From positions 4,472-68,471 of the forward strand of contig JAOTYD010000008.1 of assembly GCA_029862005.1 (NCBI GenBank): a stretch of DNA of 64,000 nt, written 5' to 3'. Of the stretch, positions 4,466 through 54,591 are shown piece by piece. The notes beneath the pieces were generated by a model that saw nothing but the letters and a program-made list of their open reading frames with translations, searched no databases and was not told where the DNA came from. How positions within the stretch are numbered: the first letter of the stretch is position 1; the number at the start of each line of letters is the position of its first letter. The position numbers and the translations under genes were made by a program. Origin of the DNA: Gammaproteobacteria bacterium (lineage in GTDB: Bacteria; Pseudomonadota; Gammaproteobacteria; GCA-001735895).

Positions 4466-4560
4466 TTCCGATATGTCGGACCACCGCTTATGCGGGAATG
4501 ACGGCAAAGTTTATGCGTCATCCCGGGCTTGACCGATACGTCGGACCGCCGGGATCTTGT
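4466..4560. repeat. REP-like hairpin repeat, site A (GCGGGAATGACG ... CGTCATCCCGGG)
   Basis: Intergenic between glpK and glpD. Shares the GCGGGAATGAC core with sites B, C, D, F and G. Confidence 0.45.
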
Positions 4561-4618
4561 AATGTCGCCGTGAATCAAATATTCCCGCCGGGCCGCGCAG
4601 GTTCGCGAGAGAATGAGA

Positions 4619-6220
4619 CTATTTCGCAAAATACTCATCGAAACGTGCCTTTGCCTCGTTGCCAAATAGCTTTTCGCAGGCCTCGAACAGACCTGCCGAT
4701 TGTTGCAGTGTCGTACGCGACACCAGCAACTCGATCTTGGAGCGGCGCCTGAGATAATCTTCGAGTTTGACGATCATTTCATTGTGCGCCAGGTATTCTA
4801 TTTCGCAACGGCGGATGCCGGTGTTTTCAATCAACGGCTCTGTCAGGGTGGGGTTCCGCTCAATCGCGTTGAGCAGGGTCTCGGCCTGTGCGCCATAGCG
4901 GCGCCACAAGCGCCTGCTTAAGGGTTCACAGGTGTCGTTGGCGAAAAATTCATCGAGCCCCAGCTTGCTTGCACGTTTGAAATAAGCCTGTTGTGCCTGA
5001 TCATCGGGTTCCCCATACCATTTCTCGACATGATCCAGTTTCAGGCCGAGTTCGGCGACGCAAGCACAAATCTCGTTGCCGACATTCAGGCAGTCAGTCA
5101 ATTTGCCACCAAAAATACTGATGTGACTCTGACCGGCGGACATCTCAATCACGTGTTTGCGCGATAGTTGCTGGACGTCAATCGAATTATCGCCGAGCTT
5201 GCGTGTTGCCAATGGCCGTACGCCACAGCGCTCGGCAATAATATCCCCGGGTACTAGCGGTGTGGGTAGATCGAGTCGGGCATTTATGTTCGATAGCACG
5301 AAATCACGATCCTCATCGGTTACCGCGGGGACAGGATCGTCAACCTTCGTGTCGGTAGTACCGATGCAGGTCCGGTTTGCCATGGGTATTGCAAAGAACA
5401 GGCGTTCATCGTCGGCAAAAAATGCAAGCACGCGATGATTTTCCGAAATCTGCGGTACGATCAGATGGATGCCTTTCGATAAAACGTGTTGGTATTCAGT
5501 CTCGACGCCGGTGAGCGCATTATGGCTGTCGACGAAGGCACCCGCCGCATTGATCAGGATTCTGGAGCGAATTTCAAACGAGTTGCCGTTGATCTGGTCC
5601 TGTGCCTGCGTGATCCAGTGGCCATTCGCATCGCGGGTCGCTCCTTCAGATTTGACATAGTTGGCCGCAACACAGCCGTTGTCGAGTGCGCTGCGCACGA
5701 AGTTGAATACAAAGCGAGCGTCGTTATCATGCAGAAACGCATCTGAGTACTCGATTCCGGCGCTGCTTATGCCCGTGTTGATTAAGGGTTCGATCTGCTT
5801 TAAACGACGCGGTGAAACCAGCTTTGGTGTGCGAGTTTTACCCCGGCCCAGCAACCAGTAGAGCCAGGTACTTGCCAAGATAATCCAGGGGTGAAATCGA
5901 AAACGTTTGTTGACCGTCATCAGGAAGCGAATTTCCTTGACGGTAGAGGGAAAGCTGTCGAGCAACTCGTTGCGCGACTTGCACAGTCCCGCAACCAGGC
6001 CGAACTCATAGCCTTCCATGTACTTGATACCGCCCCAGACCAGGTTGGAGGATTGCTGGCTGGTGAAACCGGCAAAGTCTCCGGCATCGATCAGCGCGAC
6101 GCTTGCCCCACGTGCTGCCAGTGCCGCAGCCGTTACCGCACCGTTGATGCCACCACCCACAATCAGAACTTCAAAGGCTTCATTTTCGAGGCGCGCAATA
6201 TTGCCGTTACGCAGGTCCAT
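4619..6220 (-). CDS. glpD: FAD-dependent sn-glycerol-3-phosphate dehydrogenase
   Basis: FAD dinucleotide-binding motif VGGGINGAVTAAALAARG; the length fits GlpD and it sits in the glycerol locus. Confidence 0.9.
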   Translation of the reverse strand: MDLRNGNIARLENEAFEVLIVGGGINGAVTAAALAARGASVALIDAGDFAGFTSQQSSNLVWGGIKYMEGYEFGLVAGLCKSRNELLDSFPSTVKEIRFLMTVNKRFRFHPWIILASTWLYWLLGRGKTRTPKLVSPRRLKQIEPLINTGISSAGIEYSDAFLHDNDARFVFNFVRSALDNGCVAANYVKSEGATRDANGHWITQAQDQINGNSFEIRSRILINAAGAFVDSHNALTGVETEYQHVLSKGIHLIVPQISENHRVLAFFADDERLFFAIPMANRTCIGTTDTKVDDPVPAVTDEDRDFVLSNINARLDLPTPLVPGDIIAERCGVRPLATRKLGDNSIDVQQLSRKHVIEMSAGQSHISIFGGKLTDCLNVGNEICACVAELGLKLDHVEKWYGEPDDQAQQAYFKRASKLGLDEFFANDTCEPLSRRLWRRYGAQAETLLNAIERNPTLTEPLIENTGIRRCEIEYLAHNEMIVKLEDYLRRRSKIELLVSRTTLQQSAGLFEACEKLFGNEAKARFDEYFAK

Positions 6221-6264
6221 CGATTTACCGACACGGCTCCCTGTGATTCAAATTTACAGCCAAT

Positions 6265-6549
6265 TCAGACTTTCCTGAAAACAAAGACGAACCAGCCAAT
6301 TGCCAACGCCAGCGCGCCCCATAGCGGGGTGCCGATAAAGGCCAGCCATCCCAGGTTGATAAATCCCGTGCCCAACCATGAAATGAAGAGGCGATCACCA
6401 CGAGTCGTATCGATGCCGAATATACCGCGGCGTGGATTACCCCCGGGGCTGAATTTTTCCCAGACGCCCATGGTGACGATTGACCCCACCAACGTTATGA
6501 AAAACGCGGCGGTCGGCCAGGTCCATGCCATCCAGGATAAATCTAACAC
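6265..6549 (-). CDS. Small integral membrane protein (DUF2160-like, GlpU-type component of glycerol ABC systems)
   Basis: 94 aa with two hydrophobic segments. Positioned between the permeases and glpD as in rhizobial glpSTPQUV loci. Confidence 0.6.
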   Translation of the reverse strand: MLDLSWMAWTWPTAAFFITLVGSIVTMGVWEKFSPGGNPRRGIFGIDTTRGDRLFISWLGTGFINLGWLAFIGTPLWGALALAIGWFVFVFRKV

Positions 6550-6564
6550 GGGGCACCCATCTGA

Positions 6565-7362
6565 CTAAACACGTCCCAGGGCAAAACCCTTGGCGATGTA
6601 GTTGCGCACGAAGTAAATGACAAACGCTCCCGGTATGATGGTGAGCGAACCCGCGGCGGCCAACAGTCCAAGTTCGTAACCCGAGGTACTTGCCGTTCGC
6701 GTCATGGTCGCTGCAATGGGCTTGGCTTCAACCGAGGTCAGGGTTTTTGCCAGTAACAGTTCCACCCACGAGTACATGAAGCAGAAGAACATGGCGACGC
6801 CGATACCGGCTGCGATGGTTGGGATAAAAATACGAATAAAAAATCGCCAGAAGGAGTAGCCGTCGAGATAGGCGGTTTCATCGAGCTCTTTCGGAATCCC
6901 GGACATGAAGCCCTCGAGAATCCATACCGCGAGCGGAATGTTAAACAGGCAATGCGCGAGCGCGACGGCGATATGCGTATCAAACAACTCGATCGATGAG
7001 TAAAGCTGGAAGAATGGCAGTGCAAACACGGCCGGGGGCGCCATACGATTGGTCAATAACCAGAAGAACAGATGCTTGTCACCGAGGAAACGATAGCGTG
7101 AAAACGCGTAAGCCGCGGGTAGCGCGACCGAAACCGAAATGAAAGTGTTGATGACCACGTAAATCAGCGAATTGATGTAACCGTTATACCAGGTTGGATC
7201 GGTAAAAATCTTGGTATAGTTTTCTAGCGTGAACTGTTGTGGAAAAAATGAAAACCCGCCCAGAATTTCGTTGGTCGTTTTAAACGACATCGACAGCAGC
7301 CCGTAGATCGGCAGCATCAGGAACAGGATATACAGGGTTGGCAAAACCCATTTTCTATTCAT
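6565..7362 (-). CDS. Carbohydrate-type ABC transporter permease (glycerol uptake)
   Basis: Multi-pass membrane protein with a binding-protein-dependent permease signature region. Confidence 0.8.
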   Translation of the reverse strand: MNRKWVLPTLYILFLMLPIYGLLSMSFKTTNEILGGFSFFPQQFTLENYTKIFTDPTWYNGYINSLIYVVINTFISVSVALPAAYAFSRYRFLGDKHLFFWLLTNRMAPPAVFALPFFQLYSSIELFDTHIAVALAHCLFNIPLAVWILEGFMSGIPKELDETAYLDGYSFWRFFIRIFIPTIAAGIGVAMFFCFMYSWVELLLAKTLTSVEAKPIAATMTRTASTSGYELGLLAAAGSLTIIPGAFVIYFVRNYIAKGFALGRV

Positions 7363-7366
7363 GCGG

Positions 7367-8254
7367 TCATTGCTCCTCGTTGCGCATCATCACGGTGTAA
7401 AAAACCCAGCAAATCAGCAACACGACCAGGAAGTAGATTAATGACATCGCCGCCGCGGGGCCGAGATCGAATTGCCCGAGCGCGATCTTGACCAGGTCGA
7501 TCGACAGGAAGGTGGTGGTGTTGCCCGGGCCGCCTCCGGTCAGTACGAAGGGTTCGGTGTATATCATGAAACTGTCCATGAAACGCAACAGGATCGCAAT
7601 GGTCAGTACCCGTTTCATTTTCGGCAACTGGATATAACGAAATACCGCCCAGCGACTGGCGCCATCGATGTGCGCAGCCTGGTAGTAGGCATCGGGAATC
7701 GAACACAACCCGGCATAACAAAGTAACACCACCAGGGAAGTCCAGTGCCAGACATCCATAACTACAGTCGTCATCCAGGCAGATACTGGTTGCTGGGTGA
7801 AATTGTAGTCAAAACCTATCGAGTTCAGGCTGTACCCGAGCAGGCCGATGTCGGGTAGCGCGAAAATGTTCCACATCGCACCGACGACGTTCCACGGGAT
7901 CAGCAACGGCAGCGCCATCAGCACCAGGCAGACCGAGACCCATGGTCCCTTGCGCGGCATCGACAGTGCGACCGCGATCCCGAGCGGGACCTCGATCGAG
8001 ATTATCATGCCGGTAAACAACAACTGTCGCAGTAGCGAATCGTGAAAACGTTCGGAACGCAGTACCTTCTCGAACCAGGTGACGCCTTCCCAGAAAAAAG
8101 CGTTATTACCGAAAGTTTCCTGCACCGAGTAATTGACGACCGTCATCAGCGGGATGAATGCGTTGAATGCCACCAGTAGTAATACCGGCACCACCAGCCA
8201 CCAGGCTTTTTGATTGGTGGTTTTACGCACCTTTCGCCTCCACCACCCAGTCAT
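7367..8254 (-). CDS. Carbohydrate-type ABC transporter permease (glycerol uptake)
   Basis: Six-TM permease topology, directly upstream of the second permease. Confidence 0.8.
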   Translation of the reverse strand: MTGWWRRKVRKTTNQKAWWLVVPVLLLVAFNAFIPLMTVVNYSVQETFGNNAFFWEGVTWFEKVLRSERFHDSLLRQLLFTGMIISIEVPLGIAVALSMPRKGPWVSVCLVLMALPLLIPWNVVGAMWNIFALPDIGLLGYSLNSIGFDYNFTQQPVSAWMTTVVMDVWHWTSLVVLLCYAGLCSIPDAYYQAAHIDGASRWAVFRYIQLPKMKRVLTIAILLRFMDSFMIYTEPFVLTGGGPGNTTTFLSIDLVKIALGQFDLGPAAAMSLIYFLVVLLICWVFYTVMMRNEEQ

Positions 8255-9299
8255 CGCGATAAATGTGGAGATTGGCGGGATCGAATTGAATCATCGGGCT
8301 TTCCGGGGGTATTGCCTGGTCTTCTGCAACCAGCATCTTGATTTGCTCGGATTCGTGTTTGACGGTCACCACCTGGAAGCGCCCGAGGTCTTCAACTTTC
8401 TGAATCTCGACCGGAATCCCGTCATCGCCGAAACGAACAAACTCCGGCCGAATACCGATTTCGAGTTTACCGCTCAAATCGGTATCGGCCGGATAATCCG
8501 ACGAGAGCGGATTATTCCCAAATACGGGTTGCCCGTTTTCTAGCCTGCAGGGCAGTACGTTCATCCCGGGTGAACCAATAAAGTAGCCAACGAATGTGTG
8601 TTTGGGCCTGGAAAATAATTCTACGGGGCTGCCGACCTGAACCACCCCGCCGTCATGCATGACGATGACCTGATCGGCAAAGGTTAGCGCCTCGACCTGA
8701 TCGTGGGTAACGTAAATCATCGTAACCCCGATCTGTTGATGCAGCTCCTTGAGCTTCGAGCGCAGCTGCCATTTCAAATGCGGGTCGATGACCGTCAGTG
8801 GCTCGTCGAACAGAATTGCGTTGACATCCTCGCGCACCAGACCCCGGCCCAGGGAAATTTTTTGCTTGCCGTCCGCAGTCAGACCCGAAGCACGCTGCTG
8901 CAATCGCTCGGACAGGTCCAGCATGTCGGCGATCTCGGTAACTCTTTCCCGGATCCTTGCTTCCGGCATACCTCGATTGCGCAGTGGAAATGCCAGGTTA
9001 TCGAACACGGTCATCGTGTCGTAGACCACCGGAAACTGGAAAACCTGTGCAATATGTCGACCGGCCGTAGGCAGCTGGGTCACCTCTTGATGGTCAAACA
9101 GAATCGAACCTTCTGACGGTGTCAGTAACCCCGAAATAATGTTTAACAAGGTCGTTTTGCCACAGCCTGAGGGACCGAGCAGCGCGTAAGCACCGCCATC
9201 TTCCCATACCTGGCTGACTTCCTTGAGCGCGTATACAGGTGCCTGGCCCGGTGGCGGGGGATAGGCATGGCGTACGTCCTTAAACTCGATTCGCGACAT
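8223..9299 (-). CDS. ABC transporter ATP-binding protein, MalK/UgpC-like, with a degenerate signature motif
   Basis: Walker A GPSGCGKTT and a C-terminal TOBE-like domain. The signature reads ISLGRG instead of LSGGQ. Confidence 0.8.
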   Translation of the reverse strand: MSRIEFKDVRHAYPPPPGQAPVYALKEVSQVWEDGGAYALLGPSGCGKTTLLNIISGLLTPSEGSILFDHQEVTQLPTAGRHIAQVFQFPVVYDTMTVFDNLAFPLRNRGMPEARIRERVTEIADMLDLSERLQQRASGLTADGKQKISLGRGLVREDVNAILFDEPLTVIDPHLKWQLRSKLKELHQQIGVTMIYVTHDQVEALTFADQVIVMHDGGVVQVGSPVELFSRPKHTFVGYFIGSPGMNVLPCRLENGQPVFGNNPLSSDYPADTDLSGKLEIGIRPEFVRFGDDGIPVEIQKVEDLGRFQVVTVKHESEQIKMLVAEDQAIPPESPMIQFDPANLHIYRDDWVVEAKGA

Positions 9300-9300
9300 G

Positions 9301-10365
9301 CTACACCTGTGTTTCGATTAACATTTCGTTGGCGTCGAAATACAGGCAGCGATTCGAATCGAAGAAAAAACTGGCGCTCTCCCCAAATTCGTAGCCGTGA
9401 ATACCGTGCGCCTCGCTAACCCAGTTATTGCCTTCGATAATGACGCGAATGATACTTTCAGAGCCGCTAATCTCGGCAATCTGAACCTCGCCATCGACTT
9501 CGACACCTTCGCCAACGGGTAATAAATGGTGCGGCCGCAAACCGATTTTATAGGCTCCGTCGGGCATCTCGGCGAGCCTGGGTGGCACGCTCCAGCTCAC
9601 CGCGTCACTGAGGTAGGCGGTCTCACCACGTTTCTCGATCGAGGCGATATTAACCGGCGGGTCGGAGAAAACCCGGGCGCTCGCAAGCGATTCGGGATGG
9701 CGATAAATGGTCGAGGTTTTGCCGAACTGTACCACCCGCCCCTCGTCCAGGGTCGCCGTGTAACCCCCGAGCATCAGTGCCTCGAGCGGCTCGCTGGTAG
9801 CATAGACGACCGTGGCACCGGTATCGGCAAACATCCTCGGGAGTTCGTCGCGCAGCTCTTCGCGTAACTTGTAATCGAGGTTCGCAAGCGGCTCGTCCAG
9901 TAACACCAGTTCGGCCCCCTTGACCAGTGCCCGCGCCAGCGCGGTGCGCTGTTGCTGACCACCTGAAAGTTCACTCGGCAGGCGGTCGAGCATGGGTGTC
10001 AGTTTCAACAGGTCGGCAAAGCGACGCACCTTTTCATTAATTTCCTGTCGGGGTAATCCGGCAACCTTTAACGGTGAAGCGATGTTGTCGTAAACGCTGA
10101 AACTCGGGTAATTGATAAAGGCCTGGTAAACCATTGCAACGCTGCGCTTTTGCACCGGTATTCCGGTGACGTTTTCACCATTGACCCAGAGTTCACCACG
10201 GGTCGGTTTTTCCAGTCCTGCCATCAGGCGCATCAGCGAGGTCTTGCCGCTTAACGTGGTACCCAGCAGGATATTGAACTGGCCGGGTTCTAGCGACAAA
10301 TCGGTTTCGTAGATATGGGTCTCAGCACCAACTCGCAGTGAAACCTGGCGTAATTCAATCGCCAT
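9301..10365 (-). CDS. ABC transporter ATP-binding protein, MalK/UgpC-like, canonical
   Basis: Walker A GTTLSGKTS, signature LSGGQQQR and Walker B LVLLDEP. Confidence 0.85.
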   Translation of the reverse strand: MAIELRQVSLRVGAETHIYETDLSLEPGQFNILLGTTLSGKTSLMRLMAGLEKPTRGELWVNGENVTGIPVQKRSVAMVYQAFINYPSFSVYDNIASPLKVAGLPRQEINEKVRRFADLLKLTPMLDRLPSELSGGQQQRTALARALVKGAELVLLDEPLANLDYKLREELRDELPRMFADTGATVVYATSEPLEALMLGGYTATLDEGRVVQFGKTSTIYRHPESLASARVFSDPPVNIASIEKRGETAYLSDAVSWSVPPRLAEMPDGAYKIGLRPHHLLPVGEGVEVDGEVQIAEISGSESIIRVIIEGNNWVSEAHGIHGYEFGESASFFFDSNRCLYFDANEMLIETQV

Positions 10366-11169: not shown

Positions 11170-11263
11170 CGTGGTTTCACAGAAATTTGAGAGCAGACCA
11201 CCCCCGGAGCCCTGTTTAACGAGCCCCGGCGGCAATCATGTTCAACGGTCTATCCCCAGACCG

Positions 11264-12991: not shown

Positions 12992-13035
12992 GAGAATTGC
13001 CTCCTCGGTTTTATGTTTATTTAGTTACTTCGACA

Positions 13036-13065
13036 CGCCCGCTGAATCTACGCCCGCGGATTCAG
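13036..13065. promoter_or_regulatory. Inverted repeat CTGAATC-N10-GATTCAG plus direct CGCCCGC repeats, then TTCGTTT-type repeats, in the AT-rich divergent promoter region
   Basis: Read directly. Lies upstream of the SBP gene and the flavodoxin-like gene; candidate GlpR/DeoR operator. Confidence 0.3.
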
Positions 13066-13151
13066 ATTGTCAATAATCTTTTTCGTTTGTTCGTATTAAT
13101 GTTCATTTTGACGTTATATTTTCGTTTTATCTGAAAACTAACGATAAATCG

Positions 13152-13683: not shown

Positions 13684-13735
13684 TGGTCATTCCCGCGCAA
13701 GTTGCGGTCCGAAGTATCGGAATCTTGTATCGTGC
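13684..13735. repeat. REP-like hairpin repeat, site D (GTCATTCCCGCG + CGCAAGTTGCG hairpin)
   Basis: Shares the GTCATTCCCGC core (reverse complement of GCGGGAATGAC) with sites A, B and C. Confidence 0.4.
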
Positions 13736-17906: not shown

Positions 17907-20285
17907 TTATTCCTTGCTGTAAGCCTGCAGCATCTTGTTCATCAACTCGATATGCTGCGCGTCGGTCAGGCGACCGGGCTCGGACACCTTGGACCACAGA
18001 TCGGCATTGGTCATTTCACGGTGGCAACCCATGCACAGTCCGGTGCGATCCATTGCATCGCGCACCTCTTGTGGCAGCGCGCGCGACAGCGGCCAGTGCG
18101 AGCCTACCGTTTGTGTCTGTTGGCCGTCCTTGATAATCGTGGACAAGTCAAAATCAAGCGCCTCGATTTTGGGTATCTGGATCTTGAAGTTGCTCGGAAT
18201 GGGTTTGCCGGTGCGCTGATCGATCAGGTCCTCAACCACGTTCTCGGTGTAGCGCAGCGAGAACACACCACCGGAGATACCGTAACCCTGGGCTTTCGGA
18301 TTGTTGTGGCAGCTTTCGCAGGTACGGGCCTTGCGCTGCGCCGAGTGTGGCTGCACCGGCGCCATGTCGAGGCCGAGCGGCACGCGCTCCTGTCCCAGTT
18401 CCTTCTGCTCGTCGTAGGCCATTGCGATCTGGTTATGCGCCACAGTGCTACCGTCGCGCGCCCGCACGGTCCAGATAACCTGGCATCCCGGCATCAGCGG
18501 AGTCACGCGACCCTCACCGTTGATGCCGAGCACTGGCTCTTCCCAACGCAGGTAGGAACGGGTTTCGGAGACCTTGCCCGGGCTCTGGATGCCCTTGGTG
18601 CCGAGCGGTGATTCCGCGGTGGAACCATCCGGGTAGCGCAGCGATCCGGAGGCGATCCAGTCGGTGTCTTGCTTCGGCTTGCCGTTTTTATCCGGGCCGT
18701 AGTCGACGTCGACGTGGCAGCCGTAACACTGCGGTACCCAGGACGCGTGGCAGGCGTAACACTCGAGGCTCTCGGCGTGTTTCTTGACGCTTGCCATCGC
18801 CACCATTGCCTGAGAGTTGCGCCAGGCATCATCTTCGGCCAGCTTTTTCAGCAGCGGCACCTTGAAATCGTTGCCGGTAGCCGAGTGCATGATGACCGTA
18901 TCGCCATCCTTGACCACGTTGCCGTAGGGGTTGCCGCGCGCGCTCAGCAGATAACCGTCCTTCTTGTCGTAAACGGTCGCAAATGCCGCGGTCTCCTGCA
19001 GCAGGCTGTTGGCGAGGCCGCGCGGCGAGTTACCAATCGACTTGGCGAATTCTTCGCCGTGACCGAGTGGCAGCTCCCATGGGTACTCTTCCGGCGTTCC
19101 ATGACAGTCCTGGCACTCGACCTCGACCTGCGCCAGCGTAGTGCCCGGGATATTGCCGTCACCGTGCATGTCGATCGTGGTGTGGCAATCCTGGCACAGC
19201 AAGCCGCCTTCAGGGTTTTCCGGACGGCTCTTGATCTGGTGATGCAGGTCGTCGGAAATAAACAGGTAATTCTTGGTATGCAGCTTGGGCTGCTTGCCGC
19301 CGGTCTCGCTGTAGGGTGAGCCGTAGGGGAATTCCATCAGGCCCTGGTAGGTCACGCCGATGCGCTTGCCGCGGTTATGGCACGAATTGCAGGTTTCGAC
19401 CGGGATACCGGAATAGGTCGTGTCGCCGACCGTGACCTTGGATTTACGCGTGGCCTGGATCTGATGGGTCAGCATGTGACCTTTCTGCGTCTTGTCGATG
19501 GTGGGATCACCGCCCTCGTATATGCCTTCGTTACCGTAGGGGATGTGGCAGGAAGAACAGCCCTGGCCGCGATAATCACCGCGCTTTTCACGCCCCTTGA
19601 CGGTGACGTGACAACGCTGGCACTGCTGGCGCTGATAGGTAAAGCCGGCCAGCTTCGGATCTTTCTCGATCTCGTCGACGCTGGGTTGCGGGATTTGCGC
19701 CAGTTCGGTCGGAAACTGTTCCTTATGTGCCGCAATCATGTCCTTCATGTAAGCCTTGTAGGCGTCGGTGCCGACGCTTGGAACAGGTCCGTCGCCGTCC
19801 TTGACGTCGTAATTACCCCACGGCACCTTGTGGTTTTGCACTTCGGGGATGCCCCAGGTGTGCAGATTACCCTGGATTTTACCGGCCTCGGTGTTCATCA
19901 GGGATTTTTCGAGGCGTTCTTCATAGCCGGCATGGCAAGCGCTTTGCCCACAGGTGAACTTGTTAATATCCATCGCGCCAGGGTCGGGGTAGAAGGTTTG
20001 CGGACCCTTGAAGTCGACCAGTGACTGAGGCGATCCTTCGTGTGCCTTGGCTGCGTCGCTGGCGGTGGGATCACCACCGTGGCACATCACGCAGCCGGCG
20101 GTATCGCCATGCACGGCGCTCAGCGAATTGATCAGTTGCAGCATCGCACTCGATTCCTCGCGAATCGACTCGATGCCGTTATGGCAGGCAAGACAGCCCG
20201 AGACAGCCGCAGGCGACGGGCCCGGATTGATCCAGAGAAGCGAAAATAAAATGATTACCCCAAGTGCCTTGCCGTACCGGTCCAT
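17907..20285 (-). CDS. Periplasmic multiheme cytochrome c (11 CXXCH motifs plus one CX4CH)
   Basis: Signal peptide; motifs CLACH, CVMCH, CGQSACH, CQRCH, CSSCH, CNSCH, CQDCH x2, CYACH, CYGCH, CESCH and CMGCH read from the translation. Confidence 0.85.
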   Translation of the reverse strand: MDRYGKALGVIILFSLLWINPGPSPAAVSGCLACHNGIESIREESSAMLQLINSLSAVHGDTAGCVMCHGGDPTASDAAKAHEGSPQSLVDFKGPQTFYPDPGAMDINKFTCGQSACHAGYEERLEKSLMNTEAGKIQGNLHTWGIPEVQNHKVPWGNYDVKDGDGPVPSVGTDAYKAYMKDMIAAHKEQFPTELAQIPQPSVDEIEKDPKLAGFTYQRQQCQRCHVTVKGREKRGDYRGQGCSSCHIPYGNEGIYEGGDPTIDKTQKGHMLTHQIQATRKSKVTVGDTTYSGIPVETCNSCHNRGKRIGVTYQGLMEFPYGSPYSETGGKQPKLHTKNYLFISDDLHHQIKSRPENPEGGLLCQDCHTTIDMHGDGNIPGTTLAQVEVECQDCHGTPEEYPWELPLGHGEEFAKSIGNSPRGLANSLLQETAAFATVYDKKDGYLLSARGNPYGNVVKDGDTVIMHSATGNDFKVPLLKKLAEDDAWRNSQAMVAMASVKKHAESLECYACHASWVPQCYGCHVDVDYGPDKNGKPKQDTDWIASGSLRYPDGSTAESPLGTKGIQSPGKVSETRSYLRWEEPVLGINGEGRVTPLMPGCQVIWTVRARDGSTVAHNQIAMAYDEQKELGQERVPLGLDMAPVQPHSAQRKARTCESCHNNPKAQGYGISGGVFSLRYTENVVEDLIDQRTGKPIPSNFKIQIPKIEALDFDLSTIIKDGQQTQTVGSHWPLSRALPQEVRDAMDRTGLCMGCHREMTNADLWSKVSEPGRLTDAQHIELMNKMLQAYSKE

Positions 20286-20389: not shown

Positions 20390-20469
20390 ATCGGAGCCTG
20401 TTTCAATTAAAATGCTTTATAACGGTGCAGAGAGGTAACTTTTGGTGCATGGTAGCGACTTAATCAACA

Positions 20470-20548
20470 AGATCCCCGCTGGTGCGGGGATGACGCCGAG
20501 TCGTTACGTCATTCCCGCCGGATGCGGAACACTTAGCGGGAATCTCAC
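20470..20548. repeat. REP-like hairpin repeat, site B (ATCCCCGC-TGGT-GCGGGGATGACG ... CGTCATTCCCGCCGGATGCGG ... GCGGGAAT)
   Basis: 8-bp stem hairpin plus repeated core motifs. Located between the aminotransferase 3' end and the cytochrome promoter. Confidence 0.45.
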
Positions 20549-20592
20549 AATGGTGATCGTGTATTAAAATCCCGGTTTAAATGGGGATGATT

Positions 20593-26459: not shown

Positions 26460-26468
26460 TACCGATTG

Positions 26469-26590
26469 TCGTTCCGCGGCTTGACCGCGGGACCCAGTCA
26501 AACAACATCGCGTGTAGCGCGAACATTTAAAGTAAGCTCTGCGAGCGTGATGGTTACACTGGATCCCGCGGTCAGGCCGCGGGATGACTA
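26469..26590. repeat. Tandem GC hairpins, REP-like site F (CCGCGG-CTTGA-CCGCGG; ATCCCGCGG-TCAGG-CCGCGGGAT followed by GAC)
   Basis: Perfect 9-bp stem in the second hairpin, followed by the GATGAC tail shared with the other sites. Confidence 0.45.
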
Positions 26591-26634
26591 ATAAGTGGTT
26601 AAGCCGCAGGGCGACAAGTTACCGAGGAGATGAA

Positions 26635-27015
26635 ATGGACAAAGATTTATTTGAAAAAGGCCTGGCCAAGCGCAAAGGCACGTTGGGCGCGGAGTATGTT
26701 GAAAAGAACCTGGCCGCGGCCGATGATTTCACGCGCCCTTTCCAGGAGGCAATGACCGCATGGTGCTGGGGTTTCGGCTGGGGCGACGAGGTAATCGAAC
26801 CGAAGACGCGTTCGATGATGAACCTGGCGATGATCGGCGCGCTCGGCAAGATGCATGAATGGGAAATCCACTGCCGTGGTGCGCTCAATAACGGCGTCAG
26901 CAAGGAGGAGATTCGAGCCATTATTCACGTGGTTGGAATTTACTGCGGTGTGCCGCAGTCGCTGGAGTGTTTTCGCGTGGCGCGCAAGGTGCTGGAAGAG
27001 GCTGGCGAGCTATAA
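26635..27015 (+). CDS. Carboxymuconolactone decarboxylase (CMD/AhpD-like) family protein
   Basis: Family-typical size and blocks (TAWCWGFGWGDEV, HCRGALNNGVSKEEI). GAGGAG Shine-Dalgarno upstream of the start. Confidence 0.7.
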   Translation: MDKDLFEKGLAKRKGTLGAEYVEKNLAAADDFTRPFQEAMTAWCWGFGWGDEVIEPKTRSMMNLAMIGALGKMHEWEIHCRGALNNGVSKEEIRAIIHVVGIYCGVPQSLECFRVARKVLEEAGEL

Positions 27016-42009: not shown

Positions 42010-42110
42010 CGAAGCGGGGATCTCTAACTGATTGGCTACCAGTTTATACAAGATTCCCGCTTTCGCGGGAATGACTTTTTATGATCGTAAAGTCATTAAT
42101 CCTTGTATAG
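42010..42110. repeat. REP/MITE-like nested palindrome, site C (TATACAAG ... ATTCCCGC-TTTC-GCGGGAATGAC ... AATGACTTT-N10-AAAGTCATT ... CTTGTATA)
   Basis: Three nested perfect inverted repeats plus GCGGGGATC upstream. Lies between the permease and the sulfatase. Confidence 0.5.
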
Positions 42111-44002: not shown

Positions 44003-44069
44003 GTTACGAGAAAATACTCCGGGCGGAAATCGCCCGGAGCAGGTTATCGGGAGCTGATGACGAAGTCAT

Positions 44070-45626: not shown

Positions 45627-45706
45627 GGTGGATACTCCTTCAGTCATTTGTCATTGGTTATGCCTACAGCAGTTTTATTGAAAAAAACCGAAAAATTTTT
45701 ATATTA

Positions 45707-47425: not shown

Positions 47426-47599
47426 TTGCTATTTGGCCTTGATTTTTAGCTGCTTGGGCGAAACGGGATGCTAACGCGCTCGTCAATAAATTGCTACTTC
47501 TCAGGGCTGCCGATCAACTGTGCCTTCAGGTTATAGGGCCAGGCATTTGTGATTCCGGTAAGCATTAAATAATTAGACCGGTAGAATCGAATCTTTAAA

Positions 47600-48337: not shown

Positions 48338-49248
48338 TCCTGCTCGAGCATCGCGAGGTAAAGCTGCTGCAGTTTTTCGACCATTGGGCCGCGTTTGCCG
48401 TCACCGATGGTGCGGCCATCGATTTCGCGCACCGGTGCCAGGCCTGCAAAAGTGCCGGTCACGAAGGCTTCGTTTGCGCTGTAAACATCGGTCAGGCTGA
48501 AATTTTTCTGCCTCACCGGGATCTGGTTCTGCTCGCACAACTCGATTACCTTGCCGCGGGTTATGCCACCCAGGCAGTAATCGCCTGTCGAGGTCCACAC
48601 CTCATCCTTGCACACGATAAAAAAATGGGTCGAGTTACAGGTGGCGACAAAGCCATGGGGGTCGAGCATTAACGCCTCGTCGGCCCCGGCCTTGGCGGCC
48701 TGGATGCAGGCGGTAATGCAGTTCAGCTTGGAGTGACTGTTGAGCTTCGGATCCTGCACGTCGGGATAGCCGCGGCGCACGTGGACCGTGAACAGCTTGA
48801 TGCCCTTGCACGCGGTCTCGGGGAGTGCCTGCTTGTACTCCGGAATAATCACGATGGTGGGGGCTGTGATCGTAACGCGGGGATCCTGGTAGGGTGTCGC
48901 CTTGATCCCGCGCGACACCATGAGCCGGATGTGAACGCCATCCTGCATGTTGTTTTTTTCAAGCAGGCGGTAGAGGCGTTCGCCGAGTTCCGCGGCAGTT
49001 AATTCCATTTCCATATCGAGCGCTTTTGCGCCTGCATATAACCGCTCGAGGTGTTGCTCGAGAAACGCGATCTTGCCCCGGTGTACGCGCAATCCTTCCC
49101 AGACGCCATCGCCAAGCACGAAGCCGCTGTCGAACACCGATACTCTGGCCTCGTCACGTGCAAAAAATTCACCATTGATATCGATGAAGATGTCCGCGTT
49201 GCGCGGATCGTCCTGATACTCGTGAGTACCCTTGGTCTGACTATTCAT
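48328..49248 (-). CDS. Class IV PLP-dependent aminotransferase (branched-chain / D-amino-acid type)
   Basis: Aminotran_4 fold blocks (EGLRVHRGKIAFL, catalytic region TCNSTHFF). Confidence 0.8.
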   Translation of the reverse strand: MNSQTKGTHEYQDDPRNADIFIDINGEFFARDEARVSVFDSGFVLGDGVWEGLRVHRGKIAFLEQHLERLYAGAKALDMEMELTAAELGERLYRLLEKNNMQDGVHIRLMVSRGIKATPYQDPRVTITAPTIVIIPEYKQALPETACKGIKLFTVHVRRGYPDVQDPKLNSHSKLNCITACIQAAKAGADEALMLDPHGFVATCNSTHFFIVCKDEVWTSTGDYCLGGITRGKVIELCEQNQIPVRQKNFSLTDVYSANEAFVTGTFAGLAPVREIDGRTIGDGKRGPMVEKLQQLYLAMLEQECA

Positions 49249-49798
49249 CGGTGCTTCCTAATTCAAATTCCTCGCCCATACTCGAAATGCTCAGGTAAAC
49301 GGCACCATCGCGTTCAGTTTCATCCGCGAGATTGAGCAGGTCGTAAAAAGCGCTGCGGCTGATCAGTGCATCCAGGCCTTCGCGAAAATGTACATAGGGT
49401 CGAGGTTGGTTGGTGTTCGTGTCGATATCGACACGAACAGGGTGATCGCGATCGACGATGATTTGTTCACTTGTGTTGGTGGTAAACACGATTGCCTGTT
49501 GACCATTTTCCTCGATGCGATCGACCAGGTTTGCAACAAACGGCGCATCGTCCACCTGGATGCGCAGTTTTTCGGCGGGCGTGACGAGGAAGTACTCGTC
49601 ACCTTCGCGACGCAGAATCCCGGCAAACAGCTTCACCATGGAATCGCGCCGGAATGGGCGCCCCTCATGAAACCAGTTGCCATCGGCTGCGATACGGATA
49701 TCGATCTCGCCCTGATTTCGAGGATTCCAGTCACGCCTCGCCGCCCGGGTTGTTTCACTGGTCCTGATATTGGCGAGAATTTGATCGAGTTGGGACAT
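49241..49798 (-). CDS. Hypothetical protein (possibly DUF1285-like)
   Basis: No recognisable catalytic motif. Overlaps the downstream aminotransferase by 8 nt. Confidence 0.45.
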   Translation of the reverse strand: MSQLDQILANIRTSETTRAARRDWNPRNQGEIDIRIAADGNWFHEGRPFRRDSMVKLFAGILRREGDEYFLVTPAEKLRIQVDDAPFVANLVDRIEENGQQAIVFTTNTSEQIIVDRDHPVRVDIDTNTNQPRPYVHFREGLDALISRSAFYDLLNLADETERDGAVYLSISSMGEEFELGSTDE

Positions 49799-49977
49799 GC
49801 GTGTTTGTTTAATTTAACCAGCCACGATGTTATCCCCGGCGTGGATTAATGTCATCCTGTGCTTCGAGCCGCTACAAATGATCGGTGCTCGCACTGAACT
49901 GCCGGTTTTTCGAGACGGCTCACGCGATCTATCGAAAACGAATCAGTTAATCTATACTTTTACCACTTGCGCCATCC

Positions 49978-50733
49978 ATGAGGAAACAATCCACCATGAA
50001 ACGCAGAGGATTCGTCAAGCTGTGTGCGTCAGCGCTCGCCAGCATTACCGCCAGTCCCCAGTTACTGGCCCGGGAGAATCATGTTTATCATCGATACGGC
50101 AAGGTTGCCCTGATCGATCCCAATAGTGGTGAACCGATGCGGGCGGCGTCGCTGAACGTGGGAGAGGCTTACCTGTTCCACTACCCGTTTGTGTCCACGC
50201 CGTGTTTTCTCATAGACCTGGGCAAGTCAGTCACAACCCGAAGTAATCTCAAGACCCGCGACGGCGAGCTCTATCGGTGGCAGGGCGGGTCGGGGCAAAA
50301 AAACTCGGTGGTTGCATTCTCCGCGATTTGTGCGCACAAGATGAGCCACCCGGCACCATCTGTAAGCTTTATCAACTATCGGCATGGAAAAGTCAGGTTT
50401 CGTAACAGCAATGATGAACTCGAACAACGCGCCGGCGTCATATACTGCTGTTCGGAAAACAGCGTGTATGATCCCGCACATGGGGGTCGAGTACTCGGGG
50501 GCCCGGCACCGCAGCCGCTGGCTTCAATTGAGCTGGAATACGACAGGAGTGAAGATATCTTTTACGCTACCGCCACGATTGGCGGCGAAATGTTCGACCG
50601 TTATTTCAGGAATTTCCACGATCGGCTGGTACTGCAACACGGTCGAACCGATATCGATCGGGCATTGACCGGGACCACCGACCTGGTGCGACTCAGGGAT
50701 TACACCGAAAACCAGGTGAGCTGCCAGGCTTGA
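49978..50733 (+). CDS. Tat-exported protein with a degenerate Rieske-like Cys/His pattern
   Basis: Twin-arginine motif KRRGFVKL; CAHKMSH but no canonical second CXXH box. Confidence 0.5.
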   Translation: MRKQSTMKRRGFVKLCASALASITASPQLLARENHVYHRYGKVALIDPNSGEPMRAASLNVGEAYLFHYPFVSTPCFLIDLGKSVTTRSNLKTRDGELYRWQGGSGQKNSVVAFSAICAHKMSHPAPSVSFINYRHGKVRFRNSNDELEQRAGVIYCCSENSVYDPAHGGRVLGGPAPQPLASIELEYDRSEDIFYATATIGGEMFDRYFRNFHDRLVLQHGRTDIDRALTGTTDLVRLRDYTENQVSCQA

Positions 50734-50866
50734 GAAAAAGCGGGACCGAATAAGACTCCTGCCTCCGCGCAAACAAGGCTTCAAAGTAAAATCAAATGCC
50801 TGAATCAAATTTCCGGACGCAATCCGGTGCTGCTACTATTGGCTATTGTTTCCACCTGGTTTAGCG

Positions 50867-52759
50867 ATGGCGGATAAGCGATTATCGGGCAAGCTCGCAG
50901 TGATTCTGCATGCGGATGTCGTGGGATCCACGATGCTGGTGCAACAGGATGAGCAAAAAGCTCACCAGCGCATCCAGGATTCTTTCCAGCGTTTCGGTAA
51001 AACCATTTCAAACTATCATGGCCAGGTTCGTGAACTCCGCGGCGATGCGCTACTGGCCGAGTTCGAACGTGCCTCGGATGCGATCTCCGCGGCGCTGTCT
51101 TTTCAATCAGACCAGGCGAATTACAACGCGCAACTCGATGACGATATCCGCCCACTGGTGCGGGTTGGGATCGCCATGGGTGAGGTCGTGATTGCCGATG
51201 ACACGATCACGGGTGCAGGTGTGGTGTTGGCACAAAGGCTGGAGCAATTGGCGGATCCCGGTGGGTTATGCATAACACCGGCAATCCGTGAAGCGATGCC
51301 GCGGCGCCTGCCGTTCGAGCTTGAGAATATCGGTGAACAGCAATTAAAGGGATTCGATGAGCCCATTGGCGTTTACCGGGTCGTATTGACCCCTGGGGCA
51401 GCGGTCCCATCTCCCGAGCCGGGCCGGAATAGTGACGCTGCGGTGGGCTCGCAAAAGCTCAGAATTGTGGCAACCGCAGTTGTACTGGCTGTTTTTGCTG
51501 CGGCTACCTATGGCTTTGTCACCTGGCAATCAAGGGAACCTGTCATTCCCGAATCCACAGATCAGATTTCATCCGAAAAACCCTCGATAGCGGTTTTACC
51601 TTTCGACAATATGAGCGGTGACCCTGAGCAGGAGTATTTCGCCGATGGAATTACCGAGGATCTGACCACCGATTTGTCGAGAATCTCGGGATTGTTCGTG
51701 GTTGCTCGTAATTCGGCTTTTTCCTACAAGGGCAGATCGGTCGACGTACGTACTGTCGCCCAGGAACTGGGCGTGCGTTATGTTCTCGAAGGCAGCATTC
51801 GACGCGCCGATAACCAGATTCGGATCAATGCGCAGCTGGTTGACGGATCCAATGGCGGTCATATCTGGGCCGAGCGTTTTGATGGCACTATGGCTGATGT
51901 GTTCGCCTTGCAGGACCAGGTCAACCGGAAGATTGTCGCCGCACTCGAGGTCAACTTGACCTCGGCAGATGAAAAAAGATTCGACCATGTCGAGACCAAA
52001 GTTCCGGAGGCTTATGACAGGTTGTTGCTCGGGATCGAGCAGTACAACACCTTTACCCCTGATGCTGTTGTCGAAGCCCGTGAGATTTTCAAACAAGCTG
52101 CGGCTCTCGATCCAAACTACGCGCGGGCCTATGCCAACATCGCGTTAACGCATGCGACAGAAGTCAATTTTTTCTGGTCGAAGGATCGTGAAGGATCCAT
52201 TCGGCTAGGGCTGGAGTTTGCGCGCAAGGCCCTGGAACTGGACGATACTATTCCACAGATATACCTGACGCGAAGCATTCTGTATCTGTCGCAGCGTCAA
52301 CACCAGACCGCGCTCGAGTCGGCCCAACGCACGATTGAGGTCCACCCGAATTATGTTGATGGATATGCAACGCTGGCGTTTATTTCGAGCTATTCGGGTA
52401 ACTTCGAAAAAGGGCTCGAAGCACTGGACCAAGCGATACGCATCAATCCGCAGGGCACCGGCGTTTATCTCGCCGTCAAAGGCCGCATTCTTTTTTTAAT
52501 GGAAAAATACGATGACGCCGTACCGGCACTCGAGGAAGCGCTTGATCGAAATCCGGGATTCGACCGGATTCATTTGCATCTCGCAGCAGTCTACGCTCAG
52601 CTCGGACGAATCGAGGACGCCGAATGGTCGGTGGAAGAGGCGCTCGCAATCAATCCGGATATCACGCTGGCGAAGGAACGCCGCGAGAGTATCTATCGGC
52701 GCGAAAGCGATCTTGAGCATTACGTGGATGCCTTGCGTAAGGCCGGGGTACCCGAGTGA
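50867..52759 (+). CDS. Class III adenylate/guanylate cyclase with a TM segment and C-terminal TPR domain
   Basis: N-terminal CHD domain (LAVILHADVVGST, RVGIAMGEVV), one TM helix, then TPR repeats. Confidence 0.75.
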   Translation: MADKRLSGKLAVILHADVVGSTMLVQQDEQKAHQRIQDSFQRFGKTISNYHGQVRELRGDALLAEFERASDAISAALSFQSDQANYNAQLDDDIRPLVRVGIAMGEVVIADDTITGAGVVLAQRLEQLADPGGLCITPAIREAMPRRLPFELENIGEQQLKGFDEPIGVYRVVLTPGAAVPSPEPGRNSDAAVGSQKLRIVATAVVLAVFAAATYGFVTWQSREPVIPESTDQISSEKPSIAVLPFDNMSGDPEQEYFADGITEDLTTDLSRISGLFVVARNSAFSYKGRSVDVRTVAQELGVRYVLEGSIRRADNQIRINAQLVDGSNGGHIWAERFDGTMADVFALQDQVNRKIVAALEVNLTSADEKRFDHVETKVPEAYDRLLLGIEQYNTFTPDAVVEAREIFKQAAALDPNYARAYANIALTHATEVNFFWSKDREGSIRLGLEFARKALELDDTIPQIYLTRSILYLSQRQHQTALESAQRTIEVHPNYVDGYATLAFISSYSGNFEKGLEALDQAIRINPQGTGVYLAVKGRILFLMEKYDDAVPALEEALDRNPGFDRIHLHLAAVYAQLGRIEDAEWSVEEALAINPDITLAKERRESIYRRESDLEHYVDALRKAGVPE

Positions 52760-52769
52760 AAATCTGCCG

Positions 52770-52814
52770 CCATCCCCGCGCCGAATCCCACGTTATCCCC
52801 GCTTGCGCGGGGTA
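52770..52814. repeat. REP-like hairpin, site E (ATCCCCGC-TTGC-GCGGGG), preceded by a second ATCCCCGCG copy
   Basis: Same stem sequence as site B. Lies between the convergent cyclase and moaD genes. Confidence 0.35.
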
Positions 52815-52820
52815 GACGGA

Positions 52821-53075
52821 TCAACCGCCGGTGACCGGGGGAAAGAAGGCGATTTCGTCGGTGTTGCTGATTTCTGCAGTCGGTTCGCTCATTTCCTGGT
52901 TGATTGCCACCAGTATTCGGGTGTCACCGTTAAACTCGCTATCAAAGGGCTCTCCACGTGCCCGCAATAGCGCAACCAGGTCGGCAACTGTCTTGCAATC
53001 CGCTGATAAATTTATTTCCTCTGATTTAATGCCCAGCGATTCGGCCAGTCGCGCAAAATAGAGAATATCAGCCAT
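52821..53075 (-). CDS. moaD: Molybdopterin synthase sulfur-carrier subunit MoaD
   Basis: 84 aa with a C-terminal Gly-Gly. Confidence 0.75.
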   Translation of the reverse strand: MADILYFARLAESLGIKSEEINLSADCKTVADLVALLRARGEPFDSEFNGDTRILVAINQEMSEPTAEISNTDEIAFFPPVTGG

Positions 53076-53080
53076 TACCC

Positions 53081-54349
53081 TTAAAGGGACCAGTCGAAGA
53101 ACTGGATATTGACTTCGTCACCGGCCTCGACGCCGTCGTTTTCATCGGGCAGTACGATAAAGCAGTTGGCGCGGCTCATCGACGTCAGGATACCGGATCC
53201 CTGTTTGCCGGTTTTGCTGACCTGCCATTCGTTATTGTCGTCCAGCATGGCGATACCGCGCTGGAACTCGTAGCGCCCCGGCTTCTTGCGCATCGCATCG
53301 AGTGCACGCGCGCGAAACAATGCCGGGCGTCTGGATTTGGCGCCGGCCAGAGCATCGATCGCGGGCACCACGAACTGGCTGAAGGTCACCATTACCGCGA
53401 CCGGGTTACCGGGTAAACCCATGAAAATGCTGGCGTCGATCTGGCCAAAGGTCAACGGTCGCCCCGGCTTGATCGCGATTTTCCAGAACTCGGTCGTACC
53501 GAGTTCTGACAGTGCCGGCCTGATGTAGTCGGCCTCCCCGACCGAAACACCACCGGTGCTGATGATCAAATCAGCCCGCTTCGATGCATTATCGAGCACT
53601 TCGCGCATGGCTGTGGGTTCATCCTTGACCACGCCGAGATCGATGATGTCGACTGCCATGGGCGATAGCATGCCGTGCAGGCTATAGCGATTACTGTCAT
53701 AAATCTTGCCCGGCTCGAGCTTTTCACCAATTGAGACCAGCTCGTCGCCGGTGGAGAAAAATGCGACTACGGGTTTGCGCTTGACCTGGAGTTGACCAAT
53801 GCCCAGCGATGCCAGCACGCCGATATCGGCCGGGCTGAGTCTGACGCCAGCGTCAATCACGATTTCACCGCGGGCAACGTCCTCGCCGGCCAGGCGGATA
53901 TTTTCACCGACCCGATGATCAGAATCGACCCGAATCCTGCCGGTTTCGGTAATTTCCACCTGCTCCTGCATGATCACCGCGTCGGTACCCTCGGGTACCA
54001 GTGCCCCGGTCATGATGCGCACGCATTGTCCTGGGCCACAGTCACCACTAAACGGGGTGCCCGCAAAAGCCGTGCCGACTTCTTCAAGCTCGGTAATTTC
54101 CCCTTTTGACAGGCTGTCGATGGCAACCGCAACCCCGTCCATTGCTGAATTAGGCAGCGGCGGAACGTCATGCGGGGACTTGACGGCTTCATTGTTTACG
54201 CGGTCAAGGCACTCACGAATCGGCAGGCGCTCGCAGGCGTGGACCGGTAGTACGCGTTCCTGGATTTTGTTTAACGCATCGCCGAGGCTGATCGATTCCG
54301 GGTCGAAGGGATCTGCACAGCTGGGCGCGGAAGAAATTTTGTTGCTCAT
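53081..54349 (-). CDS. moeA: Molybdopterin molybdenum/tungsten transferase MoeA
   Basis: MoeA N and C domains; ISTGGVSVGEADY motif. Confidence 0.85.
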   Translation of the reverse strand: MSNKISSAPSCADPFDPESISLGDALNKIQERVLPVHACERLPIRECLDRVNNEAVKSPHDVPPLPNSAMDGVAVAIDSLSKGEITELEEVGTAFAGTPFSGDCGPGQCVRIMTGALVPEGTDAVIMQEQVEITETGRIRVDSDHRVGENIRLAGEDVARGEIVIDAGVRLSPADIGVLASLGIGQLQVKRKPVVAFFSTGDELVSIGEKLEPGKIYDSNRYSLHGMLSPMAVDIIDLGVVKDEPTAMREVLDNASKRADLIISTGGVSVGEADYIRPALSELGTTEFWKIAIKPGRPLTFGQIDASIFMGLPGNPVAVMVTFSQFVVPAIDALAGAKSRRPALFRARALDAMRKKPGRYEFQRGIAMLDDNNEWQVSKTGKQGSGILTSMSRANCFIVLPDENDGVEAGDEVNIQFFDWSL

Positions 54350-54591
54350 GAAACGGAGTGTAGTCGCTTAGGAGCGTAATTGAGGCACAGACAGGGTAAA
54401 AATGGTAGGGGTAACACCATTTTTTTGTGGCTGCGGCCAATCCTTTTAGTAAAGTGGATTAAATTTAGGGCTTGGGGCTATAAAAGCAGCGGCGAGAGTG
54501 GTATTTTTACGCCTTGACCGAAAGCGTTCCAGCGGGATCAAAGAGCCGTGTTCCGGCGGGAATGACAATAACGACACAATCGGAGGATACA

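Follow-up and report, generated by a model that had tools for sequence, protein, structure and literature searches.

The 64,000-nt stretch analysed here, hereafter called the window (positions 4,472 to 68,471 of contig JAOTYD010000008.1, Gammaproteobacteria bacterium, assembly GCA_029862005.1), carries a dispersed family of short hairpin repeats in the spacers between its genes. An earlier note on this DNA, made from the letters alone, had listed seven such sites (A to G) and likened them to the repetitive extragenic palindromes (REPs) of enterobacteria. The repeat family proved to be real. Indeed, the 11-mer GCGGGAATGAC or its reverse complement was found exactly at five sites (4492, 13686, 20508, 42065 and 54556), against a mean of 0.09 and a maximum of 1 in dinucleotide-preserving shuffles, and eight matches were obtained when one mismatch was allowed, against 2.26 expected. 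That all seven sites share the motif holds for these five; site F carries a stem variant, GCGGGATGAC, and is a clear member, while site E is unconvincing.

According to the gene map and the annotation, all 12 copies recognised are intergenic, in a window where intergenic DNA amounts to about 9%. Site E lies between convergent genes and all others but G between tandem genes, as had been proposed; G lies between divergent ones. The three perfect stem-loops quoted in the earlier note are present at 20472-20491, 42053-42072 and 26564-26586, the last being ATCCCGCGG-TCAGG-CCGCGGGAT, and at 20472 and 42053 the pattern ATYCCCGC-N4-GCGGGRAT is matched without a mismatch. The family is directional, its meaningful strand reading as a 5' GTCAT head, a stem-loop-stem and a 3' ATC(T/C)NG tail. 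In a complete unit the 8-9-bp GC-rich stem starts at the AT of the GTCAT head and encloses a loop of 4-5 nt, and on the 3' side a C directly after the stem is followed by (T/C)NG. The oriented pattern GTCATYCCCGC-N3-33-GGRATCT was matched five times in the window and never in the shuffles, and the oriented unit GTCATYCC(C)GC-loop-GCGGGRATC(T/C)NG is represented by eight well-formed copies (A1, A2, A3, D, B1, B2, F2 and C2) and about four degenerate ones. GTC immediately 5' and C immediately 3' of the palindrome are present in 8/8 of the well-formed units. The copies are listed below, with folding energies computed for single-stranded DNA (ssDNA) under DNA parameters; SRM stands for the Ssn-related motif considered further on.

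A1: 4416..4443, plus strand, GTCATCCCGAACTCGACTCGGGCTCTTG; 5-bp stem CCCGA/TCGGG, fold -3.9 kcal/mol; found by the head scan; left half of the inverted doublet A1/A2 (4416-4502, 87 nt), missing from the earlier list
A2: 4461..4502, minus strand, compound unit, GTCATTCCCGC-ATAA-GCGG-TGG-TCCGA-CATA-TCGGAATCTCG; two adjacent hairpins, fold -8.7 kcal/mol; oriented-pattern match, 83% complementary to D
A3: 4517..4559, plus strand, GTCATCCCGGG...CCGGGATCTTG; hairpin CCGA-TACG-TCGG inside an enlarged loop
D: 13686..13727, plus strand, solo compound unit, GTCATTCCCGCGCAAGTTGCGGTCCGAAGTATCGGAATCTTG; oriented-pattern match
B1: 20468..20494, minus strand, simple unit, GTCATCCCCGC-ACCA-GCGGGGATCTTG; 8-bp stem, 4-nt loop, fold -9.8 kcal/mol, z = -3.8; fits the published SRM pattern
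B2: 20508..20547, plus strand, GTCATTCCCGC-[CGGATGCGGAACACTTA]-GCGGGAATCTCA; enlarged loop; oriented-pattern match
F1: 26468..26497, plus strand, diverged unit of the CCGCGG subtype, GTCGTTCCGCGG-CTTGA-CCGCGGGACCCAG; left half of doublet F
F2: 26559..26588, minus strand, GTCATCCCGCGG-CCTGA-CCGCGGGATCCAG; 9-bp stem, fold -11.9 kcal/mol, z = -4.6; SRM pattern match; right half of F1/F2
C1: 41996..42025, plus strand, degenerate unit, GACGTTATCTCCGC-CGAA-GCGGGGATCTCT; head decayed to CGTTAT; left half of doublet C1/C2 (41996-42075, 80 nt)
C2: 42049..42075, minus strand, the most canonical unit, aGTCATTCCCGCGAAAGCGGGAATCTTG; fold -9.4 kcal/mol, z = -5.0
E: 52795..52814, plus strand, doubtful; hairpin ATCCCCGC-TTGC-GCGGGGTA between convergent TPR and moaD-like genes
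G: 54556..54566, minus strand, half unit, GTCATTCCCGC head and 5' arm only; no hairpin, z = -0.3

Two or three units are found at each of sites A, B, C and F, and several stem subtypes coexist in the window, including the CCGCGG subtype and the compound one. In compound units an extra small hairpin is inserted in the 3' arm or in the loop, and they fold as two hairpins in ssDNA; A2 and D have a 40-nt compound form in common (83%), made of two adjacent hairpins. A3 stands head-to-head with A2, 14 nt apart, and B2 head-to-head with B1, 13 nt apart; in one relative (L148) the counterpart of A3 is without the internal insertion. Unit D begins 12 nt past the stop codon of an FMN-reductase gene, and G lies about 26 nt upstream of the start of a ferredoxin gene, in the divergent spacer. 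The heads of F1 and C1 are decayed. G, formerly listed as a solo core, is a half unit, made of head and 5' arm, that does not fold. E is doubtful, either a decayed copy or an unrelated hairpin, since it has neither the GTCAT head nor the ATC tail. As for the larger structures, site C had been described as a triple-nested palindrome; instead, it is made of two inverted units, one of them degenerate, and a small central hairpin. The true long palindrome is site F, where the doublet F1/F2 (26468-26588, 121 nt) folds as one long hairpin of -42.2 kcal/mol (z = -7.1), with a further half unit to the right of F2 at 26597-26615. The sequence GCCGGATGCGG noted earlier in site B does occur there, but as a part of B2's enlarged loop. 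Scans of the window with Rfam (gathering thresholds) and for tRNAs found nothing.

A full-text literature search with GTCATTCCCGC led to the work of Chenal et al. (Nat Commun 2025, PMC11893778), which defines the Neisseria Transformation Sequence (NTS), CGTCATTCCCGCGMAVGCGGGAATCYRG, as an oriented extension of the older dRS3 repeat with 2% of copies within genes, and which describes across phyla a degenerate form, the SRM (HGTCWY-N0-2-YYVSBRH-N0-5-WNVSBRG-N0-2-RNCYNB). C2 differs from the 28-nt NTS consensus by two mismatches. The published SRM pattern was matched three times in the window, at 20468-20495 (B1), 26559-26589 (F2) and 42049-42076 (C2), against 0.34 expected by chance and a maximum of 2 in shuffles; A1, A2, A3, D and B2 keep the SRM head and tail, but their interiors are longer or otherwise different, and they fall outside the strict pattern. 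The window's units thus resemble NTS/SRM in a nearly identical sequence (GTCATTCCCGCGAAAGCGGGAATC), in the directional head and tail, in the 8-9-bp ssDNA hairpin, and in their intergenic location and high local density. They differ in that the tail is mostly CTTG, whereas that of NTS/SRM is CYRG, that several stem subtypes occur, and that four units are compound or have an enlarged loop beyond the published pattern. Moreover, the host is here an uncultured sediment gammaproteobacterium, the ssn gene lies outside the window, and nuclease activity and biological role are here putative.

In the same study (PMC11893778), ssnA was identified as the gene that accompanies these repeats throughout bacteria; it codes for a 94-aa single-domain GIY-YIG protein. 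SsnA was reported to bind the hairpin solely as ssDNA and on the motif strand only, and to cut a few nucleotides upstream of the repeat, with no action on duplex DNA, on the RNA form or on the opposite strand. By mutagenesis, the GTC before the palindrome was found to matter for cutting and the C after the palindrome for binding. In N. meningitidis, transforming ssDNA that enters the cell is cut shorter by SsnA and becomes less often integrated close to the repeats (PMC11893778). Strand-specific nicking has been shown for the Neisseria and Wolbachia homologues.

To look beyond the window, one genome per species was scanned with a pattern derived from the window; since it ends in CTTG, units with the canonical Neisseria tail are left out. 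At least 120 loci were matched, in Gammaproteobacteria, Alphaproteobacteria, Neisseriaceae, Bacteroidota, Ignavibacteriota, Chloroflexota, Patescibacteria, Planctomycetota and others (individual loci are cited by L numbers). A small GIY-YIG gene was found in three of the matched loci listed, namely L014, from the gammaproteobacterial metagenome-assembled genome (MAG) 21_Jan_SF_Bin30, where it encodes the protein P0001, L102, from an Ignavibacteriales MAG, and L108, from Kingella pumchi; in all three (L014/L143, L102 and L108) units of this family lie within 100 nt of the gene. Two further gammaproteobacterial homologues, P0038 and P0027 (L126-L142, 70% identity), are also flanked by units, and the unit-flanked GIY-YIG proteins are 98-103 aa long in five lineages. 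The 28 distinct perfectly paired stems among the matches listed are biased by the search pattern and were not used as independent evidence.

P0001 is a single-domain protein of 98 aa matching Pfam PF01541 over residues 7-80 (E = 9e-14). Its Tyr9, Tyr20 and Glu67 are invariant in the homologue alignment and have exactly the spacing of Y6, Y17 and E64, the catalytic residues of N. meningitidis SsnA, so that both the size of about 95-100 aa and the Tyr/Tyr/Glu spacing of the NTS/SRM-flanked nuclease are kept. Identity with the Kingella pumchi homologue, whose gene is flanked by NTS-type pairs, is 52%, and the latter shares 75% identity with proteins from Neisseria sicca and Alysiella. P0001 had no match in NCBIfam, PADLOC or PHROGs, i.e. 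no defence or phage family, and a PDB sequence search with it returned spurious WD40 matches only. Units of the window's types stand directly at ssn genes: the A2-type compound unit also flanks ssn in L014/L143, and in L136-L140 the unit that precedes ssn has the same tail as B2, CTCACAATG.

Evidence that P0001 belongs to the genome of the window comes from samples and composition. P0001 was found in four samples (ERZ28013244, ERZ27296376, ERZ27296363 and JGI 3300022220), and the window's glpK in these same four and in 3300022201, an overlap of 4/5. Of all loci, L143, a 20-kb segment of the ssn-bearing contig, correlates best with the window in tetranucleotide composition (r = 0.98, the baseline of window quarters against the rest of the window being 0.95-0.97), and its GC content is 0.555 against 0.553. 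L143 also shares the window's unit subtypes, both the compound unit GTCATCCCCGCGTAAGCGGCGGTCCGACGTATCGGGATCTTG and the CCGCGG subtype, and contains about 11 further units in its 20 kb. Sample co-occurrence, composition and common subtypes taken together, the window and the P0001 contig are therefore very likely parts of one genome, probably that of an uncultured estuarine-sediment gammaproteobacterium (MAG 21_Jan_SF_Bin30). P0038 and P0027 were also considered as partners of the window and ruled out, as they come from entirely different samples. The motif is, in sum, abundant both in the probable same genome and in many other genomes, rather than restricted to the window as the earlier note had allowed it might be.

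On these grounds we consider, with a probability of roughly three in four, that the window's repeats belong to the SRM/NTS family and are targets of the small ssDNA-specific GIY-YIG nuclease Ssn, with P0001 very probably the partner; they are then a further example of the known Ssn/SRM system and no new REP family. The description as REP-like was fair, and the expectation of a dedicated DNA-cutting partner enzyme pointed the right way. By analogy with the Neisseria and Wolbachia enzymes, the motif strand, once single-stranded, would fold, the hairpin with its head and tail would be bound by Ssn, and the strand would be nicked a few nucleotides 5' of GTCAT. The cognate Ssn would be P0001, whose gene lies inside an inverted pair of the same units, and the intergenic doublets would represent ssn-less derivatives of a unit-ssn-unit element, similar to miniature inverted-repeat transposable elements (MITEs), which may be gained, lost and replaced in the spacers over evolutionary time. 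Any effect of the units on transcripts would be secondary.

Several points weigh against this assignment. No ssn or other GIY-YIG gene was detected in the window, either by motif regular expression or by tblastn with P0001. The link of P0001 to SsnA runs through the Kingella homologue (52%) and its Neisseria relatives, and its link to the window, through co-occurrence and composition of separate contigs, is strong but indirect. The loops and insertions of A2, A3, D and B2 exceed the published SRM pattern; in L143, nevertheless, ssn has a compound unit of this over-long type as its immediate neighbour. Both the list of taxa and the stem statistics come from a biased sample, the pattern having been derived from the window and the counts taken among the matches listed. 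At the filled and empty spacers compared, neither a target-site duplication nor a precise excision footprint was seen, and a biological role beyond Neisseria is not established in PMC11893778. About 10.6 kb of flanking extension (L002, L152) contained no further units and no ssn.

The surroundings of the ssn genes offered some observations of their own. The P0001 gene (L143, 10001-14590) adjoins pilM-N-O-P-Q, with the secretin, a type IV pilus or competence-type machinery; given the role of SsnA in transformation this neighbourhood may be suggestive, or may be a coincidence. In L126-L137 the chromosomal place of ssn is conserved (rmuC, a dnaJ-like gene, degP, moaC, [ssn], DUF2333, asmA, mutY), and ssn is therefore not always in a variable region. 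Most contigs carrying ssn homologues are shorter than 2 kb, which fits flanking repeats breaking short-read assemblies; since ssn is in this way easily lost from MAGs, its absence from a MAG is weak evidence. Within the window, the B2 tail region (20540-20575, GGGAATCTCACAATG...GTATTAAAAT) resembles the unit and the promoter-like stretch before ssn in L136 (99-150, GGGAATCTCACAATGATTCCATGCTAGTATT), and B2's tail may be left over from an element that bore ssn, or may carry a -10-like box.

The units are mostly paired, in inverted doublets joined tail-to-tail that span 60-120 nt. The window contains three such doublets, A1/A2 (87 nt), C1/C2 (80 nt) and F1/F2 (121 nt). Among adjacent heads across the at least 120 loci of many phyla, 75 are arranged tail-to-tail, 63 of them spanning 60-120 nt, and 8 head-to-head. 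In four lineages (L143, L126, L136 and L102) ssn itself lies inside an inverted pair, its start codon being preceded by the upstream head at a distance of some 77 nt, so that the short doublets resemble a unit-ssn-unit element lacking ssn.

Orthologous spacers differ in their content between relatives. The glpD-glpK spacer (site A) is 221 nt long with three units in the window and holds diverged units in relatives with 94% and 91% GlpK identity; in relatives with 87% and 86% identity it is reduced to 79 and 59 nt, with an unrelated palindrome and no units. Same-population contigs at site A were identical and so uninformative for polymorphism. In a metagenome scan, the spacer of site F ranged in 31 relatives from 8 nt (TAAGCATG, empty) to 257 nt; about 21/31 carry a doublet, with subtypes differing by lineage, and the others an unrelated palindrome or nothing. 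Some copies are old, since a simple counterpart of unit D was found at the same position and in the same orientation in L150, the 86% GlpK relative. The alternation of empty and filled orthologous spacers suggests a MITE-like turnover. A MITE-like nature, which the earlier note had proposed for site C, is plausible for the inverted doublets, any mobility being deduced solely from presence and absence between relatives; the target-site duplication that might accompany it was not seen. The same spacers of relatives also hold unrelated palindromic repeats (GACCCAGAGTAAAAACTC...GAGTTTTTACTCTGGGTC and the GGGTCAGATCTAAATT type; L149 2422-2500, L150 2442-2500; L184-L186), and different hairpin families therefore use the same intergenic niches.

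A more far-reaching and tentative idea, which we hold to be possible but on balance improbable, is that Ssn acts in trans to move A1/A2, C1/C2 and F1/F2, which would then be non-autonomous mobile elements descended from an 'insertion sequence' of the form unit-ssn-unit. The nesting of ssn in inverted pairs in four lineages, the predominance of doublets across phyla and one spacer that is empty in some relatives and filled with different subtypes in others would be consistent with it. The mobile-element idea was raised in PMC11893778 as a hypothesis only. Parallels can be drawn with IS200/IS605 elements and their MITE derivatives, in which subterminal hairpins are recognised in ssDNA, target-site duplications are lacking and short non-autonomous derivatives exist, and with insertion sequences in general, in that ssn is here nested between inverted units. 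In IS200/IS605, however, both ends are processed on the same strand, whereas the units here are inverted, so that cuts made 5' of the two heads would lie beyond the pair and one on either strand. If the idea were true, Ssn would be the nuclease of an unrecognised class of ssDNA-dependent, GIY-YIG-driven mobile elements, parallel to the paired REPs (REPINs) with their REP-associated tyrosine transposase (RAYT), and cleavage by Ssn with subsequent repair would have left compound units and tandem truncated-head arrays as by-products. To our knowledge, transposition by Ssn has never been shown.

Such truncated heads were observed repeatedly. Half units, consisting of the GTCAT head and the 5' arm, are tandemly repeated just outside complete units in L136-L142, L193, L158, L159, L161, L173 and L176, for example as 19-nt arrays beside ssn, (GTCATCCCCGACTCTCTCG)n, in L138 802-1011, and as 22-nt repeats at an F-type spacer. 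The window's unit G and the half unit at 26597-26615 look like these tandem truncated heads of relatives. As a speculation, the arrays might be scars of repeated cleavage and repair.

Among the other explanations, the one faring best, though we regard it as unlikely, is that the hairpins are mainly RNA elements, i.e. intrinsic terminators or 3'-end stabilisers protecting transcripts against exonucleases, as the earlier note had also suggested. Some units do follow stop codons closely (D at 12 nt; B1, F1 and C2 near gene ends), stable GC-rich stems would form in RNA too, and REPs in enterobacteria have documented side effects as terminators or stabilisers. Yet the window is not enriched in terminator-like sites (24, 24 and 24, where 22.4, 19.1 and 21.5 were expected from shuffles), a U-tract is missing from most units, and the apparently T-rich tail CTTGT belongs to the conserved repeat itself. 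In a lenient terminator scan B1 was the only unit to score in the sense direction, and C2 scored antisense to both neighbouring genes; the units occur in both orientations relative to transcription, and G stands in the promoter region between divergent genes. The non-palindromic head and tail, of which an RNA hairpin needs neither, are kept from Patescibacteria to Proteobacteria among the matches listed, and SsnA does not bind the RNA form of the repeat (PMC11893778). Termination or mRNA stabilisation thus received no direct support. Outside the repeat family, a strong classical terminator-like hairpin was noticed at 44015-44041 on the minus strand, after a peptide-binding-protein gene, with 11 bp, 8 GC pairs and a T-run; it illustrates the form that a canonical terminator takes in this genome.

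Less probable still, at a long shot, is the reading of the units as classical REP/REPIN hairpins cut and spread by a single-copy RAYT of the IS200/IS605 type, as whose targets they had been proposed at the outset. The general look is similar, with short intergenic GC-rich hairpins, an asymmetric conserved flank, inverted pairs as in REPINs and clusters as in bacterial interspersed mosaic elements (BIMEs), and the REP analogy is drawn in PMC11893778 itself. In both systems inverted pairs form long hairpins and ssDNA hairpins are read by a single-copy enzyme whose gene is flanked by repeats; the enzyme is, however, a GIY-YIG nuclease here and an HUH/Y1 transposase there. Indeed, in five lineages it is a GIY-YIG nuclease gene that neighbours the repeat pairs and lies within them. 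With E. coli RayT, a query that may miss very distant RAYTs, tblastn (E <= 1) gave no hit either in the window or in 1.12 Mb of loci bearing the repeat; of the probable host genome about 95 kb in all was covered, and a RAYT may lie elsewhere in it. No Y1-transposase domain was present among the window proteins scanned, and the conserved head of the window units is GTCAT, against GTAG in REPs.

We give even less credit to the possibility that the units are attachment or target sites of a site-specific recombinase or phage, as with dRS3 and the integrase of the filamentous Nf prophages. dRS3 is a reported phage-recombinase target (cited in PMC11893778), and the 20-nt core ATTCCC-N8-GGGAAT of C2 and B2 fits its definition. 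Nevertheless, integrase, transposase and prophage genes are missing from the window, the pattern is rare in viral contigs (9 stretches in IMG/VR), and the head and tail that give the unit its orientation, GTC and C, reach beyond the dRS3 core, with a phylum-wide distribution unlike that of dRS3. The neisserial intergenic mosaic elements (NIMEs) are repeat segments bounded by dRS3, and the window's doublets, with a spacer of 20-60 nt, resemble them; Neisseria-type DNA uptake sequences and RS segments, however, are not known from the window. Finally, a chance likeness of unrelated GC-rich terminator hairpins, which E and G taken singly might suggest, is practically dismissed by the shuffles (five exact 11-mers against 0.09, and five oriented matches against none), by the 40-nt compound unit common to A2 and D and by identical units on other contigs and in other genomes.

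Under the assignment to the Ssn/SRM system, an anonymous repeat family of an uncultured sediment gammaproteobacterium is placed in a recently described system, and the natural but wrong REP/RAYT reading is corrected. The coexistence of stem subtypes and compound units in one genome, the inverted doublet as the usual arrangement across phyla, the nesting of ssn within a pair, the orthologous spacers found empty or filled and the truncated-head arrays beside complete units are incremental observations, which could help to explain how the repeats spread and what Ssn does outside Neisseria. Each pair of Ssn and motif is also a candidate sequence-specific ssDNA-cutting reagent.

Two minor observations concern the genes of the window. 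In the region 26584-26634, the longest ORF of the CMD-family gene starts at an ATG within the ATGAC head of F2, while the true start is likely the ATG at 26635, after GAGGAG; repeats of this kind can produce false N-terminal extensions in gene calls. A molybdenum-cofactor biosynthesis cluster adjoining an aldehyde:ferredoxin oxidoreductase gene (53081-64000) and a 792-aa multihaem cytochrome (17907-20285) form an ordinary metabolic context, free of mobile-element genes.

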